The notes under the pieces were generated by a model that had not been told where the DNA came from, searched no databases, and saw nothing but the letters and a program-made list of their open reading frames with translations. A stretch of 64,000 nt of DNA from assembly GCA_947089915.1 (NCBI GenBank), contig CAMUMB010000001.1:1581-65580 (forward strand), written 5' to 3'. Position numbers and translations under genes: made by a program. This DNA comes from an uncultured Bacillales bacterium. Its GTDB lineage: Bacteria > Bacillota_I > Bacilli_A > RF39 > UBA660. Below, piece by piece: positions 18,644 through 56,070 of the stretch; position 1 is the stretch's first letter, and each line of letters opens with the position of its first letter.

Positions 18644-18711
18644 ATTCCCCTTTTTTAATGATTAAAAGGGGCTGAGTAGAAATGAATAAATTCTATTCAG
18701 CCCCTCCTTTT

Positions 18712-19443
18712 TTATTGTAATTGAAATCGATAATGCCCTATAATTCCTTTTTTCTTACTCCATCTTTGTAATGTATCTTCTTCTAATTTAGGTTGTCCTG
18801 CATTATGTATCAAATAAGGAATCCCTTTGGAATTTCTCTTATCTGAAACAATGCCAATATGTTCACTTTTTCCAAATACAACAATATCTCCAGGTTGCCA
18901 CTCTTCTATTTTGGACAAATCATTTGTAAGTATAATAGTATTTCTTTGAAAATAAATATTTAAGTTCGTAACTCTTCTAAAATCAATATTAGGATCTATC
19001 TTTGTAATATTAGGATAAGCTTCCCTATTCTTTTCAATATCTTCTGAAACAAGATCTTTTAACGAATACCCAGCTTCTTTTAAGGCTCTCCAGATGACAT
19101 CTGTACAGACCCCCTCTGTTTCAGGCGGGTATCCACCACTATAATACTTACTCACATACTTTGGTTTAAGTTTTACCTCTTTTTTTGCACCATTTAAAAT
19201 ATCCATATAATCATCAATTCCATTTTGATTGTAATCAATTTCAGAATGAATGATATCGATATGAAAATCGGAGGCAATATAACTTTTTTTGGGAAGAAAT
19301 CTATAATAGTCTAGAACAAAAAGACCAATTAATATCAAAATAAATAAACCTACAAATAACAAGTAGAAAGAACGTTTCATATGATCACCTATTCCATTAT
19401 AACATGAAAAAAGCAAATCACATATGATCTGATTTGCTATCAA
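18712..19443 (-). CDS. Secreted/anchored protein, DUF1287-like (putative cell-wall-associated hydrolase fold)
   Basis: N-terminal TM/signal anchor. Conserved C/H residues (GVCTDVIW...HIGIV). Overlaps upstream gene by 4 nt. Confidence 0.45.
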   Translation of the reverse strand: MIANQIICDLLFSCYNGIGDHMKRSFYLLFVGLFILILIGLFVLDYYRFLPKKSYIASDFHIDIIHSEIDYNQNGIDDYMDILNGAKKEVKLKPKYVSKYYSGGYPPETEGVCTDVIWRALKEAGYSLKDLVSEDIEKNREAYPNITKIDPNIDFRRVTNLNIYFQRNTIILTNDLSKIEEWQPGDIVVFGKSEHIGIVSDKRNSKGIPYLIHNAGQPKLEEDTLQRWSKKKGIIGHYRFQLQ

Positions 19444-46021: not shown

Positions 46022-47760
46022 TTATCGCACTTTACACTTATATTTTGATTTATTTGGTATACTTTCCTTATCGATTGGTGAAATCGTATAATTATGCAAA
46101 AGTTCTACTATTTTTGTCATTTTATTTAAGGCAAGGTTATCATTTGTTGGACAATCTAATAATTCATTTAATCTGGTCCAAACAAATTGTGCATCTTCTT
46201 GTTTTTCTGAATCTAAGCTTTGCATTTGCTGCAATATATAAAATTGTATTTCAATTATTTCATATGGAAAGATATCTTTAATTAAGATTTTTTCTTTCCG
46301 ATTTTGATAAGCGGAAACTATTTCTAAATTTTGTTTTTCTAATTCTTGACTATATTCTGCATCTGCCTTTTTTGTAACTGGTTTTTGCACATCTATTGGA
46401 GTATCTTCTTTTGTTTGACAATTCAATTCGCTCTCTTTTTCTGTTCCATGTGAATTCGAATTATTTTTACCATTTTCTAAATTAAGATTAAGTTTAGTCT
46501 TCTGTACTTCTACCAATTTTTCAAAATCTTGAACAATAGACTTCCAAATACTCTGTTCTTCTTCAGTTAATAAAACTGTTTCATCTAATTTATCATAAGT
46601 AGGTCCATATAACTTAACGATTACATCATAGTATTTTTTAGTATGTTCATTCCACCACTCAATTTGGAGTATCGCATATTCTTTATCTTCTTCCTTGCAA
46701 TATTCAAACATACTTGTTTTTCTTTTTCGCCCAACTATTGTTTCATTCAAATTTTCTCTGTTTAAATCGCAAGAATTTGAATTTTCAGATTTTAGAGATT
46801 TTATACCTTCCTCTATTGTTTTGTAAACAAGAGAAAGATTACTATATACTGTTTTTTTTCACATTTTAAAATACCTGCAACTTGGTCTATAGAATATTTA
46901 GGACGATCAATTCCATTTATATATGTAAAAACAATTTTTAAATCTGTTGAAAAATCATCTAAAATTTCTTGTAACTGTTCTTCTGTCATGTTAAATTGAG
47001 ATAAAAATTCCTCTTTTCCACTATATATTTTGGGTATATCTGTTGAATTCAAATTATCTTTAGTATCTTTTAAAGTGGCAGAAACTGAATTGGCTTTTTT
47101 ATGATCTTCAGGAATAACCTTTTTTTGAATTGGTACAATCTCAGGATTCTTTTTTTCTGGAATAGGGATTGTTATATTTTCTATCATTGTAATATCTCGA
47201 TTTTCTAATAATTTCCCTGTTTGATATGCTTCTAATGCATGATTAACCGCATTTAAACATTTCACTACCTCATCATTACTACATCTTAACTTATCTGCAA
47301 TTTTATAAATATCTAATTTCTTCTTATAATACCCTATAAAACAAGATTTTTGAATTTTAGGTAAGGTATTCAAAATAGCATTGATTTCCGCTACTGTTAC
47401 TTCATAAGTTTGCAAGATATTGCTAATACTATGATAAGTTTTTACATTACTATTTTGATAATTGACTGGCAATTCAAATTTATGGATAAAATAGTTTTTA
47501 ATTTGATAGAAGGAACAACCTTTTTGTTTTAATATCTCTGCAATCAAAAGATAGTTTTCAAATTGAAGTGCACTTTTTTGAAACAATAATTCTTCTGATT
47601 CTGTAAGTACTGCCTTATTATTTTCCTTTAAATAGTTTCCCCACTTTTTTGAAAATATCTTACGAATCGTAAATGGAATAGCGCTATAGACACAATCAAT
47701 TAGATCTCCACTAAAATCTTTATAATATGTATAAATATTTTTTTCATCACGATAGTTCAT
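46022..47760 (-). pseudogene. Gene for a protein with sigma-70 region-4-like HTH, split in two ORFs (46813-47760 and 46022-46750) by a frameshift at an A8 homopolymer (T8 on plus strand, 46852-46859)
   Basis: An extra A in the run makes one continuous ORF of about 570 aa that reads directly into the downstream ORF. The downstream ORF has only a TTG start and no SD of its own. HTH LPKIQKSCFIGYYKKKLDIYKIADKLRCSNDEVVKCLNAVNHALE. Confidence 0.6.
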
Positions 47761-47803
47761 ACAAATCACTCCTTAGTTTTAAAGACAATAAAAAAGAGGG
47801 TGT

Positions 47804-47815
47804 CCCCCCCCCCCC
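47804..47815. repeat. C12 / G12 homopolymeric tract in the 5' leader of the sigma-like gene (G12 on the transcribed minus strand)
   Basis: Read directly. About 45 nt upstream of ATG 47760. Followed on the minus strand by ACA-CCCTC-TTTTTT. Confidence 0.9.
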
Positions 47816-47895
47816 GTTTACAAATAGCAAACCTTTATATTTTTATACTACGCAAACTATATTACAATTGAATTGTAACCCTTTTTATTGCTAAT

Positions 47896-47924
47896 ATAAT
47901 ACCATTATTTTTTTATTTTGACAA
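47896..47924 (-). promoter_or_regulatory. Sigma-A-type promoter TTGTCA-N17-TATTAT for the sigma-like gene. Start of a roughly 130-nt leader containing the G12 tract
   Basis: tgacaa 47919-47924, ataata 47896-47901 on plus strand. Homologous to promoter at 56042-56070. Confidence 0.5.
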
Positions 47925-47985
47925 TCTTTTCTCTTTTATTTGAGTAAATTATGTTATAATAGAGACACATTTGTGAGGTGAAAAC

Positions 47986-49250: not shown

Positions 49251-49742
49251 TTATTTTTTATAGGTTTTTTGCTTTTCTAATAAAGATTCTAACTTATGAT
49301 TAAAAACAACTTTTAAATCATTTTGATCTGGATACTTATTATTTACTTCTTTGCATGTTAATATAACCTGTTCTAACCACAAAAATAATTGTTCTAAAAA
49401 ACTATTGGCAGTTTCGATACTTCCTATATTGTATCTTCTAAAGAATTGATCTAGTATTTGAAATTGTGCCATCTCGTAATATTCCATATTTTCATCTTTT
49501 AGTTTTTCTAATACGGGTATTAAATATTCTCCTTGACAAAAAGGCAATGAGGCATTACATTCATAATTTAAATTTAAATCTGGCTTTTCAAAATCTCTTT
49601 TTCTGTTATAGTAATTTCTTAAATTTGAACAAATTTCCAAATGTCTATCGCTAAACTCTTTTTGGTAAAAGTCCGTACTACCCTCACGCACTGCTAACAT
49701 CACTTTATTTACAATTTCTAATTCAAATATTGGTTGATTCAT
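49251..49742 (-). CDS. Hypothetical cytoplasmic protein, paralogue A (163 aa)
   Basis: MNQPIFELEIVNKVM... and conserved SLPFCQGEYLIPVLEKL block shared with the adjacent gene. Confidence 0.5.
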   Translation of the reverse strand: MNQPIFELEIVNKVMLAVREGSTDFYQKEFSDRHLEICSNLRNYYNRKRDFEKPDLNLNYECNASLPFCQGEYLIPVLEKLKDENMEYYEMAQFQILDQFFRRYNIGSIETANSFLEQLFLWLEQVILTCKEVNNKYPDQNDLKVVFNHKLESLLEKQKTYKK

Positions 49743-50271
49743 TTTTTACTTCCCTTCTAAAATCGGGTCTTTGGCGATTTATTTTTTGCTTTACTTCGGA
49801 TTCCTCATAATATTCTTTCAATATTATACAGACTTTTGAATATAAGATAGATTGAAGTTCATCTTCATCCACAAGCAATCTATGATTTTCATCATATGTA
49901 TCTACATATTTTTTAAGATAGGAAAATAAGTTACCCAAAAGACTTTCATCGGATATTGGTACTTCTGTAGAACAATAAATATAGAACTTATTTAGTATCG
50001 ATTGCAATGCCAAATCATAGTATAAGCTACTCTCTTCTCCTAACTTTTTTAATAAAGGTACTAAATAATCTCCATTACAAAATGGCAAAGACTCAATACA
50101 GCATTTTGCTTTTTGATCTTTATTTTTTTGGTCAAAAGAGATTGTTCTTAATACATAATTCACATCACAGTGACTATAAGATAATTCTCTTTGATAGAAA
50201 TCCACTTTCGCATGGCTCATTTTTTCCATAATTTCATTTACAATAACTAATTCATAAATTGGTTGATTCAT
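49723..50271 (-). CDS. Hypothetical cytoplasmic protein, paralogue B (182 aa)
   Basis: MNQPIYELVIVNEIM... and SLPFCNGDYLVPLLKKL. ATG at 50271 has GGGAGTGA SD. The ORF-track upstream extension overlaps the tuf 3' end. Confidence 0.5.
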   Translation of the reverse strand: MNQPIYELVIVNEIMEKMSHAKVDFYQRELSYSHCDVNYVLRTISFDQKNKDQKAKCCIESLPFCNGDYLVPLLKKLGEESSLYYDLALQSILNKFYIYCSTEVPISDESLLGNLFSYLKKYVDTYDENHRLLVDEDELQSILYSKVCIILKEYYEESEVKQKINRQRPDFRREVKNESTNI

Positions 50272-50341
50272 TTTATTCACTCCCCTGATATTTTTAGTAT
50301 ACAAGAATATACAGAAAAAAACAAGCCTTTGCTTGTCTTTA

Positions 50342-51526
50342 TTATTGAATAATCTCTGAAATGTTACCAGAACCAACTGTTCTACCACCTTCACGAATTG
50401 AGAACTTAGTTCCATTTTCGATAGCGATTGGAGCAATTAATTCAACAGTCATTTCAACATTATCTCCTGGCATTACCATTTCAACACCTGCAGGTAATTC
50501 AATAACACCTGTAACGTCTGTAGTTCTGAAATAGAATTGTGGACGGTAATTTGAGAAGAATGGAGTATGTCTTCCACCTTCTTCTTTGGTTAAGACATAA
50601 ACTTGTGCTTTGAATTTCTTGTGTGGAGTAACTGAACCTGGTTTTGCTAATACTTGACCACGTTCAACTTCTTCACGAGCAATACCACGTAATAATACTC
50701 CAGCATTGTCTCCTGATTCTGCATAGTCTAATTGTTTACGGAACATTTCAATTCCTGTAACAACAGTCTTCTTAGTATCTTTAAGACCAACGATTTCAAC
50801 TTCATCGTTAAGTTTCAATTGTCCTCTTTCTACACGACCTGTAACAACAGTTCCACGTCCAGTAATTGTGAATACATCTTCTACTGGCATTAAGAATGGT
50901 TTATCAGTATCACGTGTAGGAGTTTCAATCCAATTATCAACAGCATCCATTAAATCTAAGATTGCCTGCTCATACTTAGCATCTCCTTCAAGAGCTTTTA
51001 AAGCTGAACCACGGATAATTGGAGTTTCATCTCCTTCAAATCCGTATTCATTTAATAATTCACGAATTTCCATTTCAACTAAGTCTAATAATTCTTCATC
51101 ATCAACCATGTCGCATTTGTTCATGAATACAACCATACGAGGTACACCAACTTGACGTGATAATAAGATATGTTCACGAGTTTGTGCCATAGGTCCATCT
51201 GTAGCAGCAATAACTAAGATTGCTCCATCCATTTGTGCTGCACCAGTAATCATGTTCTTTACGTAGTCAGCATGTCCTGGACAGTCTACGTGAGCATAAT
51301 GTCTCTTTTCTGTTTGATATTCCACGTGTGAAGTGTTGATTGTGATTCCACGATCTCTTTCTTCTGGAGCTTTATCAATGTTTGCATAATCTACGAATTC
51401 AGCGAATCCTTTTTTAGATAATACGTTTGTAATAGCCGCAGTTAAAGTAGTTTTACCGTGGTCTACGTGTCCAATTGTACCAATGTTAACATGTGGTTTT
51501 GAACGATCGAATTTTTGTTTTGCCAT
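50342..51526 (-). CDS. tuf: Elongation factor Tu
   Basis: [27 protein letters not shown] motifs. 394 aa. Confidence 0.97.
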
Positions 51527-54253: not shown

Positions 54254-54673
54254 TTATTTACTAGCTTTTGGTTTCTTTGTTCCATATTTTGAACGTCCTT
54301 GACGTCTTTTATCGATTCCAGCAGTATCTAATGTACCACGTACAATATGATATCTAACACCGATTAAGTCCTTTACACGTCCTCCACGGATTAATACAAC
54401 GCTGTGCTCTTGTAAGTTATGTCCTTCTCCACCAATATAAGCAGTTACTTCATATCCATTGCTCAAACGAACACGGGCATATTTACGTAATGCTGAGTTT
54501 GGCTTCTTTGGGGTCATCGTTCCAACACGTGTACATACGCCACGTTTTTGTGGGGAATTTTGATCTGTGTTTTTCTTTGCACGACTGTTATATCCAATCC
54601 CAAGCACTGGTGATTTACTTTTTCTCGTTTTGTCAGTTCTACCTTTTCTTACTAATTGTTGTATTGTAGGCAT
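54254..54673 (-). CDS. rpsL: 30S ribosomal protein S12
   Basis: [12 protein letters not shown].. with [18 protein letters not shown] before ATG 54673. Confidence 0.95.
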
Positions 54674-54765
54674 ATAAACCCTCCTTTCATTACACACTTC
54701 CAGGTGTTTCATTTTTTAACTTAATGAAAGATTTACCGAAGTAAATCTTGATTAAATCCTTAAAT

Positions 54766-54809: not shown

Positions 54810-55916
54810 CTATTCACTTAATTGTAGCCATACATTATAGATATTAGAAGTTATTTCAGTGTTACCGCTTTTATTTCTCCTTATTTCAAAATATCCAAGT
54901 CCGTCTATTGTTAATATGTTGGTAGACAATACCTTTCTATCAAGTACTTCTGTATACCCTCCAGAGGCACCGGTTTTAAACAAAACTGGCACCGCAAGTA
55001 TCTGCCGACTACTGTTATCTAGCAAATTTACCTCTTCATAAAAGAAATATTCAAAGGCTAGATTAACTATTGGTTGATCTTCTGGAACATGTGATGTTGC
55101 AGATACATCTACATAAATATATGCATAATCAGTCAAATTGATTGGATCTTTCGTATATATTCCCCGACGTTCTTCATTATCTCCTGTAATTTCTAAATAT
55201 AAATAATCTTCTTGTGCTGTCAGTTCTGCTTTATAAGTCTCAAACTCTGCTAGCATTTCCCCATCTAATATAAGATAGTCTGCTAGTTTCTTCGTATCAG
55301 AACATACTTCTGTTTTGCCATTCGTTGTACATACCTTTGCATATGCTGCTTCTGATGGATAAATACATGTATTATTTTCATTCATACCTAAAGCAGTAAT
55401 ATCATCTTCTGTTTTGCCGTAATAACATTTCGTTTCTTTTACAAATGTATTCATTTGTGATTCATAATTTAATATCACTTGAGTATCTGTAAAATTTTTG
55501 CTACTCCAATTTGGTTTGGGCAAATATACGCTAGTATCTCCCACACAATCCTCTCTATCTATTATCTTAGGACTTTCATCATAACCTTTTTCAACACAGT
55601 ACTTTCCTATTTTAGCAATTATACTCATTTGATTGTTTTCTCCTATTACGAGTATTCCACTTTCTGGTTTAGATCCTTTATAAGTTAAGATATCACCTGT
55701 TAAATCAATTGTTTGTTGATATTCTTCTCCTTCTAACATCGATTCCAATTGATAGTTCTCTGCTGCTTCTAAGATCCCATTTACCGATTCTATTGCTGCT
55801 CCTCTTCTTGACTTTTCAATCACATCCATTATCATTGGCGTTGCGATTAGTGCGATTACTGCTAGTATTACGATAACTGCTAATAATTCTACTAATGTAA
55901 ATCCTTTTTTCTTCAT
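54810..55916 (-). CDS. Type IV pilin-like protein (prepilin-type N-terminal cleavage/methylation domain, 368 aa)
   Basis: MKKKG-FTLVELLAVIVILAVIALIATP: class III signal peptide with G(-1), F(+1), E(+5), followed by a large secreted domain. GAGAGGAAGG RBS. Confidence 0.75.
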   Translation of the reverse strand: MKKKGFTLVELLAVIVILAVIALIATPMIMDVIEKSRRGAAIESVNGILEAAENYQLESMLEGEEYQQTIDLTGDILTYKGSKPESGILVIGENNQMSIIAKIGKYCVEKGYDESPKIIDREDCVGDTSVYLPKPNWSSKNFTDTQVILNYESQMNTFVKETKCYYGKTEDDITALGMNENNTCIYPSEAAYAKVCTTNGKTEVCSDTKKLADYLILDGEMLAEFETYKAELTAQEDYLYLEITGDNEERRGIYTKDPINLTDYAYIYVDVSATSHVPEDQPIVNLAFEYFFYEEVNLLDNSSRQILAVPVLFKTGASGGYTEVLDRKVLSTNILTIDGLGYFEIRRNKSGNTEITSNIYNVWLQLSE

Positions 55917-55962
55917 TCAAATCTTCCTTCCTCTCATAATAAACCATAAAAAAAGGGGTATA

Positions 55963-55973
55963 CCCCCCCCCGT
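55963..55973. repeat. C11 / G11 homopolymeric tract in the 5' leader of the pilin-like gene, within palindrome GGGGTATACCCC...
   Basis: Read directly. On the minus strand: G11-TATA-CCCC-TTTTTTT, about 45 nt upstream of ATG 55916. Homologous context to 47804-47815. Confidence 0.9.
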
Positions 55974-56041: not shown

Positions 56042-56070
56042 ATTATAAAGCAATCATATCATTTTGACAA
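56042..56070 (-). promoter_or_regulatory. Sigma-A-type promoter TTGTCA-N17-TATAAT for the pilin-like gene. Start of a roughly 120-nt leader containing the G11 tract
   Basis: tgacaa 56065-56070, attata 56042-56047 on plus strand. Confidence 0.5.

Follow-up and report, generated by a model that had tools for sequence, protein, structure and literature searches.

In Helicobacter pylori, the tlpB leader contains a variable G-repeat which is read by the C/U-rich loop of the small RNA (sRNA) RepG, and the variation of its length among strains tunes a surface/envelope-related operon gradually (PMC8295292). In Streptococcus gallolyticus, the pil1 leader combines repeat slippage with a premature terminator and gives heterogeneous expression, the GCAGA repeats being located inside a translated leader peptide and the pili being sortase pili (PMC3894217). 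These two leaders are the closest functional analogues of the element described here, which is present in two copies, A and B, in a 64,000-nucleotide stretch of DNA from an uncultured Bacillales bacterium (contig CAMUMB010000001.1, positions 1,581 to 65,580; the whole of this analysed stretch is hereafter called the window). The element is a transcribed leader, composed of a conserved hairpin (P1) and of a terminator-like hairpin whose 5' strand is a G homopolymer, and it mostly precedes pilin-like genes. Our favoured reading, to which we give about even chances, is that the leader is an attenuator, with a hypermutable G tract as its terminator stem, working as a contingency device on surface-protein genes.

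Like tlpB, the element has a variable homopolymeric G repeat in a 5' leader, which pairs with a C/U-rich RNA and whose length varies in an analogous manner among strains. It differs from the tlpB/RepG pair in that the C/U partner is found in cis, as the 3' strand of the terminator, with no trans sRNA known (no genome-wide search for one was made), and in that it occurs in dozens of copies per genome, with a conserved upstream hairpin, in a Gram-positive-type Bacilli host. With pil1 it shares a Gram-positive host, a pilus gene and a leader associating a premature terminator with a slippage-prone repeat; here, however, there is no conserved leader open reading frame (ORF), the G homopolymer forms the terminator stem itself and the genes are of the type-IV-pilin type. 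Contingency homopolymers are otherwise found in the poly-G genes of Campylobacter jejuni, the porA/opc promoter tracts of Neisseria and the poly-A tracts of Mycoplasma hyorhinis vlp. As in these loci, long uninterrupted tracts of strain-polymorphic length are associated with many surface-protein genes in an A+T-rich genome, but those tracts are either coding, and shift the frame, or located in the -35/-10 spacer, whereas here the tract belongs to the transcribed leader and lies inside a terminator hairpin; a G10 run in a promoter-spacer-like position is seen only in a distant relative (locus L077, see below). In Bacillus subtilis pyrG, Gs are added at the 5' end of the transcript by reiterative transcription and act as an antiterminator. 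There too, in the leader of a Firmicute, a C/U-rich strand of a terminator is paired with poly-G RNA, but the template encodes the Gs of our element, which themselves form the 5' strand of the terminator. Neisseria gonorrhoeae pilE has an upstream G-quadruplex (G4) with a cis sRNA and undergoes recombination-based pilin variation. The presence of a G-rich element and of a short transcript upstream of a pilin gene is a common trait, whereas the orientation and the mechanism (recombination) differ and neither silent cassettes nor a G4 motif are found here: instead of four runs of at least three Gs separated by short loops, there is a single 8-12 G homopolymer, with no other G run nearby. Finally, a c-di-GMP-II riboswitch is located upstream of Clostridioides difficile pilA1 and, in this Firmicute as well, a leader RNA with a terminator precedes a type IV pilin gene (PMC6200980). 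The identity of our element with a cyclic diguanylate (c-di-GMP) riboswitch was nevertheless rejected, as neither the c-di-GMP-I nor the c-di-GMP-II model has a match, and as the P1 loop is of variable length (10-60 nt) and is devoid of an aptamer-like conserved core. Indeed, no Rfam 15 model matches anywhere in the window at the gathering threshold, the best sub-threshold match being SpF03 (E = 1.7), with none for copy B, and no description of this element was found by literature searches. The RNA leader motif, of which there are about 60 examples, is therefore new and absent from Rfam, in line with the initial reading of the window from its sequence only (the sequence-only reading), whose author was not aware of any described element of this type in Gram-positive bacteria.

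The two window copies lie on the minus strand. In copy A, the promoter (47896..47924) is composed of the -35 hexamer TTGTCA (47924-47919), a 17-nt spacer and the TG-extended -10 hexamer TATTAT (47901-47896), with 10 of 12 matches, and with TG, in a promoter scan. The ATAG box and hairpin P1 (47816..47860) were delineated by folding, within a covariance-model match spanning 47791-47860: the P1 5' strand GUUUGCGUAG (47857-47848) is followed by a variable loop, then by the 3' strand GCUAUUUGUAAAC (GCTATTTGTAAAC; 47828-47816). The G12 tract (47804..47815), hypervariable among strains, is the 5' strand of the terminator-like hairpin (-11.4 kcal/mol), which is completed at 47790..47803 by the loop ACA, the CCCUC strand (47800-47796) and U6 (47795-47790). 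The order is thus box ATAGTTTGCGTAG, loop, GCTATTTGTAAAC, G12, ACA, CCCTC and T6, with the ribosome-binding site (RBS) AAGGAG (47774-47769) and the ATG (47760) further downstream. Copy B has the same organization: promoter (56042..56070; TTGTCA at 56070-56065, N17, TATAAT at 56047-56042; 11 of 12 matches in the scan), ATAG box and P1 (55972..56016, with strands at 56013-56001 and 55984-55972 according to the fold), G9 tract (55963..55971), then loop UAUA, CCCC (55958-55955) and U7 (55954-55948), which together occupy 55948..55962 (-10.0 kcal/mol), and the ATG of the gene at 55916, the order being ATAGTTTGCATATAGC, loop, GCTATTTGTGAAC (55984-55972), G9, TATA, CCCC and T7. The features common to the two copies are therefore the box ATAGTTTGC..GCTATTTGTRAAC, the G run, the C-rich stretch and the T run. 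In both of them, the RBS lies within about 10-25 nt 3' of the U tract, leaving no space for a promoter.

As proposed by the sequence-only reading, the two cassettes are homologous: a single control element is duplicated ahead of unrelated genes, and both copies were found to be built as it had described, from the promoter to the T run. The shared 17-mer GCTATTTGTRAACGGGG, searched with up to three mismatches, has exactly two matches in the window, copies A and B (0.19 expected), and two or more matches were obtained in none of 100 shuffles. Runs of eight Gs are confined, in the window, to the tracts of the two copies (0.17 expected), and a terminator scan gave 15 sites vs 3.7 expected, 11 of the 15 being alternative registers of the two G-run hairpins. 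The colinear similarity which had been claimed over the whole promoter and leader did not hold, however: the mean column identity of the pairwise alignment is 79%, but the likeness is concentrated in the block comprising P1, the G run and the terminator, and the stretch from the -10 hexamer to P1 is not colinear, an extra hairpin being present there in copy A.

Beyond the window, a DNA scan with GCTATTTGTRAACGGGGGG, covering one genome per species for 185,579 species, yielded 53 exact matches in 50 loci. All of them belong to eight gut metagenome-assembled genomes (MAGs), labelled uncultured Bacilli, Bacillales or Clostridia and originating from mouse, human, rabbit and Hadza samples, and as many as 27 exact matches were found in a single MAG, from rabbit. 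A metagenome scan added 10 true copies, plus five chance G5 matches. No match was obtained in viral contigs, and a phage origin was hence discarded. A covariance model, seeded with 10 sequences and used at E < 1e-3, recovered 60 copies in the 445 kb of locus DNA, antisense matches not exceeding 20 bits; in the window, it detected just copies A (57.9 bits, E = 5e-13) and B (66.6 bits). All 59 runs of seven or more Gs in the 445 kb belong to the element. The idea of a DNA-uptake sequence was also rejected, the 13-mer being confined to the element. The suggestion of a regulon-like set, made by the sequence-only reading, is retained, but this set is not small: it comprises about 60 copies in at least eight MAGs, mostly in front of pilin-like genes. 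We observed in addition a weak covariance-model match at 18665-18712 of the window (plus strand, 19.7 bits, E = 0.02), between convergent ORFs; most probably, this is an ordinary terminator rather than a further copy. Some assemblies break or are N-scaffolded at the element (L052:1300-1500, L054:1-20; L numbers designate loci), so that a terminator is followed by the 3' flank of a different copy. As assemblies break or are mis-joined in this way, the copy counts in MAGs are probably underestimates.

Each copy has its own canonical sigma-70-type promoter, typically CTTGAAA or TTGTCA, N17 and TGnTATAAT. As this promoter is located upstream of the box, at a variable distance of 15-45 nt, the box is transcribed. 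P1 is a strand-specific hairpin of 11-13 bp which directly abuts the G run. For 43 unique hairpins, the mean folding energy is -10.9 kcal/mol on the sense strand vs -3.7 kcal/mol on the antisense strand, the sense strand being the more stable in 41 cases, and 6.2 kcal/mol are lost when the P1 5' strand is shuffled. In 57 of about 60 copies, the 13-nt 3' strand has exactly the same sequence; the 5' strand, with its many variants, carries A or G opposite a U of the 3' strand and C or U opposite a G, and standard pairs fill 95.4% of the cells of the model-fitted alignment, vs 48-62% when the partners are slid. Variation is exclusively one-sided in 8 of the 12 P1 pairs, double-sided changes being rare because the 3' strand is almost invariant. 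When the 3' strand is altered, it still pairs, as in L072 (GTTAGTTGCAAAC) and L076 (GCTTTTTGCAAAC), two copies found via protein homology and not via the DNA pattern. The P1 loop measures between about 10 and 60 nt, a variation which speaks for an RNA hairpin and against a DNA operator of fixed spacing. RNAalifold, run on a MAFFT alignment in which the 5' strand was misaligned owing to bulges and to differences in loop length, did not detect P1, and it was replaced by per-sequence folding and covariance-model alignment. We also considered, and rejected, the P1 5' strand as a box for an alternative sigma factor or a cin-box, as well as antisense promoters: the motifs (GCGAATA, GTAAGTA, TCAAATA, GTAGATA) are too variable and no rightly spaced -10 hexamer is found.

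The terminator-like hairpin is universal (60 or more copies). With about -10 kcal/mol, it is formed by the G run, three to five Cs and part of a U5-10 tract, and it corresponds to an intrinsic terminator in being a G+C-rich hairpin immediately followed by a U tract. Its loops differ among copies, and stem extensions preserve the pairing (GGGGUAUUU..AAAUACCUC, GGGGUAAA..UUUACCCC). In both window copies and most others, it occupies the position of an attenuator, between the promoter and the gene start with no other promoter in between, which is not the case of a sub-group of copies endowed with a second promoter. In this sub-group, a conserved insert of about 60-80 nt, located between the terminator and the start of the pilin gene, contains TTGAAA-N17-TACACT or TTTACA-N17-TAAACT and a small hairpin UACACUGAUAGUGUA; it is carried by rabbit MAG loci L008, L012, L019, L023, L024, L027, L035, L039 and L045-L047 and by human MAG loci L002, L007 and L034.

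Other structures were observed around this core. In copy B, an outer helix, P0 (55938..56030, minus strand), can be drawn between the 5' strand AAAUAAAUCAUAAAA (56030-56016) and UUUUAUGGUUUAUU (55951-55938), with a duplex energy of -12.5 kcal/mol (z = -2.8). P0 is strong in copy B and its close relatives (15 bp, z = -2.8 to -4.5) and is present only in pilin copies of mouse MAGs; as a family-wide outer helix, pairing the 5' flank with the U tract, it was rejected, since z averages about 0 over the family as a whole. In the rabbit MAG, a terminator-like hairpin, AAGAATCT-TGTCAAAG-AGATTCTTTTTT, encloses the promoter of the cassette, with the -35 hexamer in the loop and a T run as the spacer before TATAAT (L005, L013, L018, L020, L024, L035, L036, L040, L045, L046 and L048, about 60-100 nt upstream of the box), an arrangement predicted to be a compact terminator-plus-promoter insulator. 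Lastly, the P1 loop of three composite copies (L032:792-910, L042:2-120, L047:24-91) harbors a 50-nt insert resembling a second, degenerate terminator and a UUGUCUAAA segment, which suggests recombination between tandem elements.

The length of the G tract was determined in 55 copies: G9 (17 copies) and G10 (29 copies) account for 46 of them, the others being G6 (one), G7 (two), G8 (two), G11 (three) and G12 (one), so that 52 of the 55 have eight or more Gs. A single tract is interrupted (GGTGGGGGG, L007), and a few variants have an ordinary stem instead of the G run, e.g., L047 with AAAAGAGGGG..CCCCUCUUUU (AAAAGAGGGG..CCCCTCTTTT). The tracts are thus, like those of contingency loci, uninterrupted, at least 8 nt long and over-represented relative to base composition, the G+C content of the genome being 30.6%. 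Uninterrupted G9-10 tracts in such a genome, together with working non-homopolymeric variants, support a role for the homopolymer itself.

A length polymorphism between assemblies is directly visible at both window loci, which disposes of the eventuality, envisaged by the sequence-only reading, that tract lengths are fixed. The tract of copy A is G12 in the window, G8 in L051 and L056 and G10 in L053 and L052, with no substitution over 200 flanking nt; one further contig covering its upstream region begins inside the tract. Copy B has G9 in the window and G10 in L071 and L014, the flanks of L071 (about 60 nt upstream and 70 nt downstream) matching the window by eye and its gene product being 99% identical. 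Tract length therefore varies among strains, as in contingency loci, at the two loci compared in short-read consensus assemblies, and the 4-nt difference at copy A exceeds the usual consensus error on homopolymers. Contigs L054, L055 and L052 break at the tract, an ambiguous observation for an element which is itself repeated.

The association with pilin-like genes is observed throughout the family. Among 47 readable downstream ORFs, 29 are prepilin-type (MKKKGFTLIELLAVIVIL..., 196-865 amino acids (aa) if complete) and eight belong to a related MKKKGFATSAILY... class, i.e., 37 of the 47 are prepilin-type or pilin-like; the 10 others comprise gene A, located downstream of copy A, together with genes for a Bac_transf sugar transferase, a TM2 protein and a Spo0A_C-like protein, and several unknowns. 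Conversely, the element is found at most 260 nt upstream of 36 among the 38 distinct prepilin-like N-termini of the loci; the two exceptions are the interrupted-tract copy and the final gene of an operon which begins with an element-bearing gene. The pilin-like genes are dispersed singly among housekeeping genes.

The gene downstream of copy B (54810..55916, minus strand) encodes a 368-aa prepilin-type protein matching Pfam N_methyl (E = 1.4e-7, 31 bits vs a cut-off of 21), which has, like type IV pilins, an N-terminal methylation motif (G-F-T-L-x-E) and a long hydrophobic alpha-1 helix. Its AlphaFold2 model (pLDDT, i.e., predicted local distance difference test, of 85) has a helix over residues 8-62 (55 residues), followed by beta-rich modules, and Foldseek matched the C-terminal beta-sandwich with carbohydrate-binding modules (Protein Data Bank entries titled family 16, CBM22 and family 35), a hyaluronan-binding module and an Eph ligand-binding domain. 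As a pilin alpha-1 helix is combined in this model with a module resembling carbohydrate-binding modules, the protein looks like a modular, adhesin-like pilin. An exact-protein look-up gave no match for it, and homologues were used instead; the protein family has 2,499 matches at E <= 1e-5. No PilB-like ATPase signature was found in the 445 kb of locus DNA, including the window.

The more distant homologues L075 and L078-L081 lack the element. Another one, L077, has a G10 run in a different upstream context, TTGACA, 20 nt (AGT-G10-TGTATGC) and TAAAAT, which would be the classical promoter-spacer design of phase variation in a different lineage; in L077:520-600, this run forms in addition the 3' arm of an inverted repeat, long but imperfect. 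In L079:374-380, a G7 run is found within the coding region of a neighboring prepilin-type gene, on a 633-kb contig otherwise without the leader element. As for genomic context, the window pilin-like gene (54810-55916), which has a promoter and a leader of its own, is inserted just ahead of the rpsL-rpsG-fusA-tuf operon (it adjoins 54254-54712), and single pilin cassettes are likewise found in other MAGs between housekeeping genes, e.g., mraZ/rsmH, rnf genes, acetate kinase and topA.

How could such a leader control the gene which follows it? According to our favoured reading, a transcript initiated at the sigma-70-type promoter would comprise a short A/U-rich 5' end, P1, the terminator-like hairpin and, about 10-25 nt further, the RBS. 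The pure G run, as the 5' strand of the terminator, would pair with the three to five Cs and part of the U tract. Where no second promoter exists, as in both window copies, the gene would be expressed only through read-through of this terminator, since the RBS follows the U tract without space for a promoter, and the module would gate expression. Being a simple-sequence repeat, the G run may change in length by slipped-strand mispairing, so that the leader of each gene would differ between cells or strains. Termination and read-through, a co-regulation of the genes and an alteration or on/off switching of their expression by tract length would follow from this reading and are inferences, whereas the family itself, its location within the transcript, the strand specificity of its hairpins, its link with pilin-like genes and the differing tract lengths of the assemblies are observed.

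Several points weigh against this. First, partition-function folding of both window leaders shows that going from G7 to G16 leaves the free energy, the terminator pairing and the accessibility of the Shine-Dalgarno (SD) sequence essentially unchanged. As equilibrium folding is insensitive to length, no simple structural on/off switch by one G is predicted, and a length-dependent equilibrium structure or a masking of the RBS, without any effect above G7, were rejected. Any effect of length would hence have to be kinetic, slippage-based or set by a factor; candidate routes would be: (i) the kinetics of termination, (ii) slippage of RNA polymerase once the 9-10 bp hybrid lies wholly within the G run, or (iii) the footprint of an antiterminator binding P1. 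Second, a second promoter stands between the terminator and the gene in about a third of the copies and, as it lies past the terminator, read-through is not required there. Third, short-read consensus assemblies may misjudge homopolymers by about 1 nt, and independent orthologous comparisons are available at two loci only. Fourth, double-sided changes in P1 are few (two pairs), their count was equalled in 48 of 500 shuffles and the alignment was fitted to the model.

The main rival, which is compatible with an attenuator, is a regulon leader for a trans-acting factor. An RNA-binding protein or an sRNA would recognize the invariant P1 3' strand and the Gs (GCUAUUUGUAAAC-Gn) and switch the terminators together, the length of the G run being neutral slippage; we consider this possible, though rather unlikely. 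The near-invariance of the P1 3' strand, facing a variable 5' strand, exceeds what pairing explains and favors a bound factor. No antiterminator pairing intrinsic to the leader and conserved family-wide was found, folding is insensitive to tract length, and the regulon is functionally coherent (pilin-like, sugar transferase, envelope and DNA-binding proteins), all of which agree with such a factor. However, no candidate factor was identified, and P1 is clear of the terminator stem, so that its stabilization alone would not block termination. Moreover, the maintenance of uninterrupted G9-10 at 31% G+C argues that the homopolymer is selected, as the normal stem of L047 does the structural job.

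Four other explanations are weaker. It is improbable that the unit going from promoter to terminator is an independent, multi-copy sRNA gene of about 75-110 nt, the neighboring genes using their own promoters or incidental read-through. Such a gene would account for the complete promoter and terminator and for the second canonical promoter which precedes the pilin gene in the rabbit and human MAG sub-groups. Yet the element is always directly upstream of, and co-directional with, a gene, and the RBS is located within 10-25 nt of the U tract in the window copies and most others, with no promoter space; neither a trans target complementarity nor an Rfam sRNA match (SpF03 being the best, see above) was found.

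A recombination device has a very small probability in our view. The block comprising the promoter, the leader and the N-terminal region would serve as a homology cassette for pilin gene conversion, the transcribed G run being the initiating lesion or structure, as the G4 and sRNA of Neisseria pilE. Dispersed paralogues with a near-identical 5' block are indeed numerous, contigs often break at the element and the composite copies (L032, L042, L047) suggest exchange between copies. But any repeat is expected to break contigs, a single G9-12 run cannot make a canonical three-tetrad G4, every copy has its own promoter and an intact gene, which leaves no silent cassettes, and non-pilin genes are preceded by the element too. 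We give equally little credence to the absence of any own function, the element being either a passively co-duplicated upstream region of paralogues or a poly-G assembly artefact. Most copies are located ahead of paralogous genes and the source consists of short-read MAGs, as this explanation would have it; on the other hand, the same leader precedes at least seven unrelated gene families, its core is kept in MAGs of mouse, human, rabbit and Hadza origin, in contrast to the divergent promoters, loops and 5' untranslated regions, and the tracts are internal, have unique flanking sequences and recur in independent studies.

Hardly credible, finally, is a leader-peptide attenuation of the S. gallolyticus pil1 kind, the frame, and thereby the ribosome stop vs the terminator, depending on tract length: in the rabbit-MAG copies, an AUG does lie 15 nt before the G run (GUAUGCUAUUUGUAAAC), from which G9 would lead to a stop at the loop UAA and G10 or G11 to read-through (stops read by eye), but this candidate start sits inside the P1 stem, is replaced by UUG or by the stop UAG elsewhere, window copy B included, no plausible start exists in 29 of 53 copies, and the AUG-bearing copies have no SD sequence, an SD-like match being found at a few UUG candidates. 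With a start that is not conserved among the 53 copies, a conserved leader ORF of the pil1 type, spanning the repeat, was rejected.

Gene A, on the minus strand, begins with a 315-aa ORF (46813..47760) encoding a putative DNA-binding protein, with weak matches to helix-turn-helix domains and to Sigma70_r4_2. The same 315-aa product is called in other assemblies, and was found as an exact product on seven contigs of mouse-gut assemblies; its true start is therefore the ATG at 47760 and not a GTG at 47769. The frameshift reported by that reading is real: an A8 run (46852..46859, minus strand) coincides with a frame change, and one additional A (A9) would join the first part to the 46022-46750 ORF (242 aa), giving 579 aa. 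P0121, an intact homologue of 812 aa, aligns straight across the junction, and the same frame change is present in six of six other assemblies (tblastn), all seven sequences having A8. The 315-aa and 242-aa ORFs are thus one gene split at the A8 run. A programmed site of slippage or frameshifting, another phase-variable tract and a fixed pseudogene are all conceivable here. The label of sigma-region-4-like gene, in contrast, relied on a sub-threshold Pfam match (Sigma70_r4_2, E = 0.008, 16.2 bits vs a cut-off of 25.7) and is not supported, no region 2 being found; P0121 carries a precomputed PF08281 match. The only tie of gene A to pilin regulation is the shared leader. Elsewhere in the window, two adjacent ORFs of the minus strand (49251-49742 and 49723-50436), paralogous (34% identity) and without Pfam match, lie between tuf and a FemAB-family gene.

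With a hypermutable G tract in the stem of a putative leader attenuator, the element is probably a new way of wiring homopolymer variation to surface-protein expression. One broader possibility, which we put forward tentatively and with clearly less confidence than the attenuator itself, is that a lineage of reduced-genome gut Bacilli switches dozens of modular type-IV-pilin adhesin genes individually, by an undescribed device combining a poly-G terminator stem and a conserved hairpin, in which the tract length (about 9-10, the size of the RNA:DNA hybrid) would set read-through by slippage of the polymerase or by the footprint of an antiterminator bound to P1. Should read-through indeed be tuned by tract length, simple-sequence phase variation would here be wired in a new manner, via the terminator stem of an mRNA leader, and this would be the first large contingency system based on a homopolymer to be reported, among gut commensals of the Gram-positive type, for type-IV-pilin-like adhesins. 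The combination of GCTATTTGTRAAC with a G run provides a simple signature for finding these genes and for tracking strain-level switching in metagenomes. The element would also give a handle on the surface variation of uncultured, small-genome Bacilli in the mouse, rabbit and human gut.

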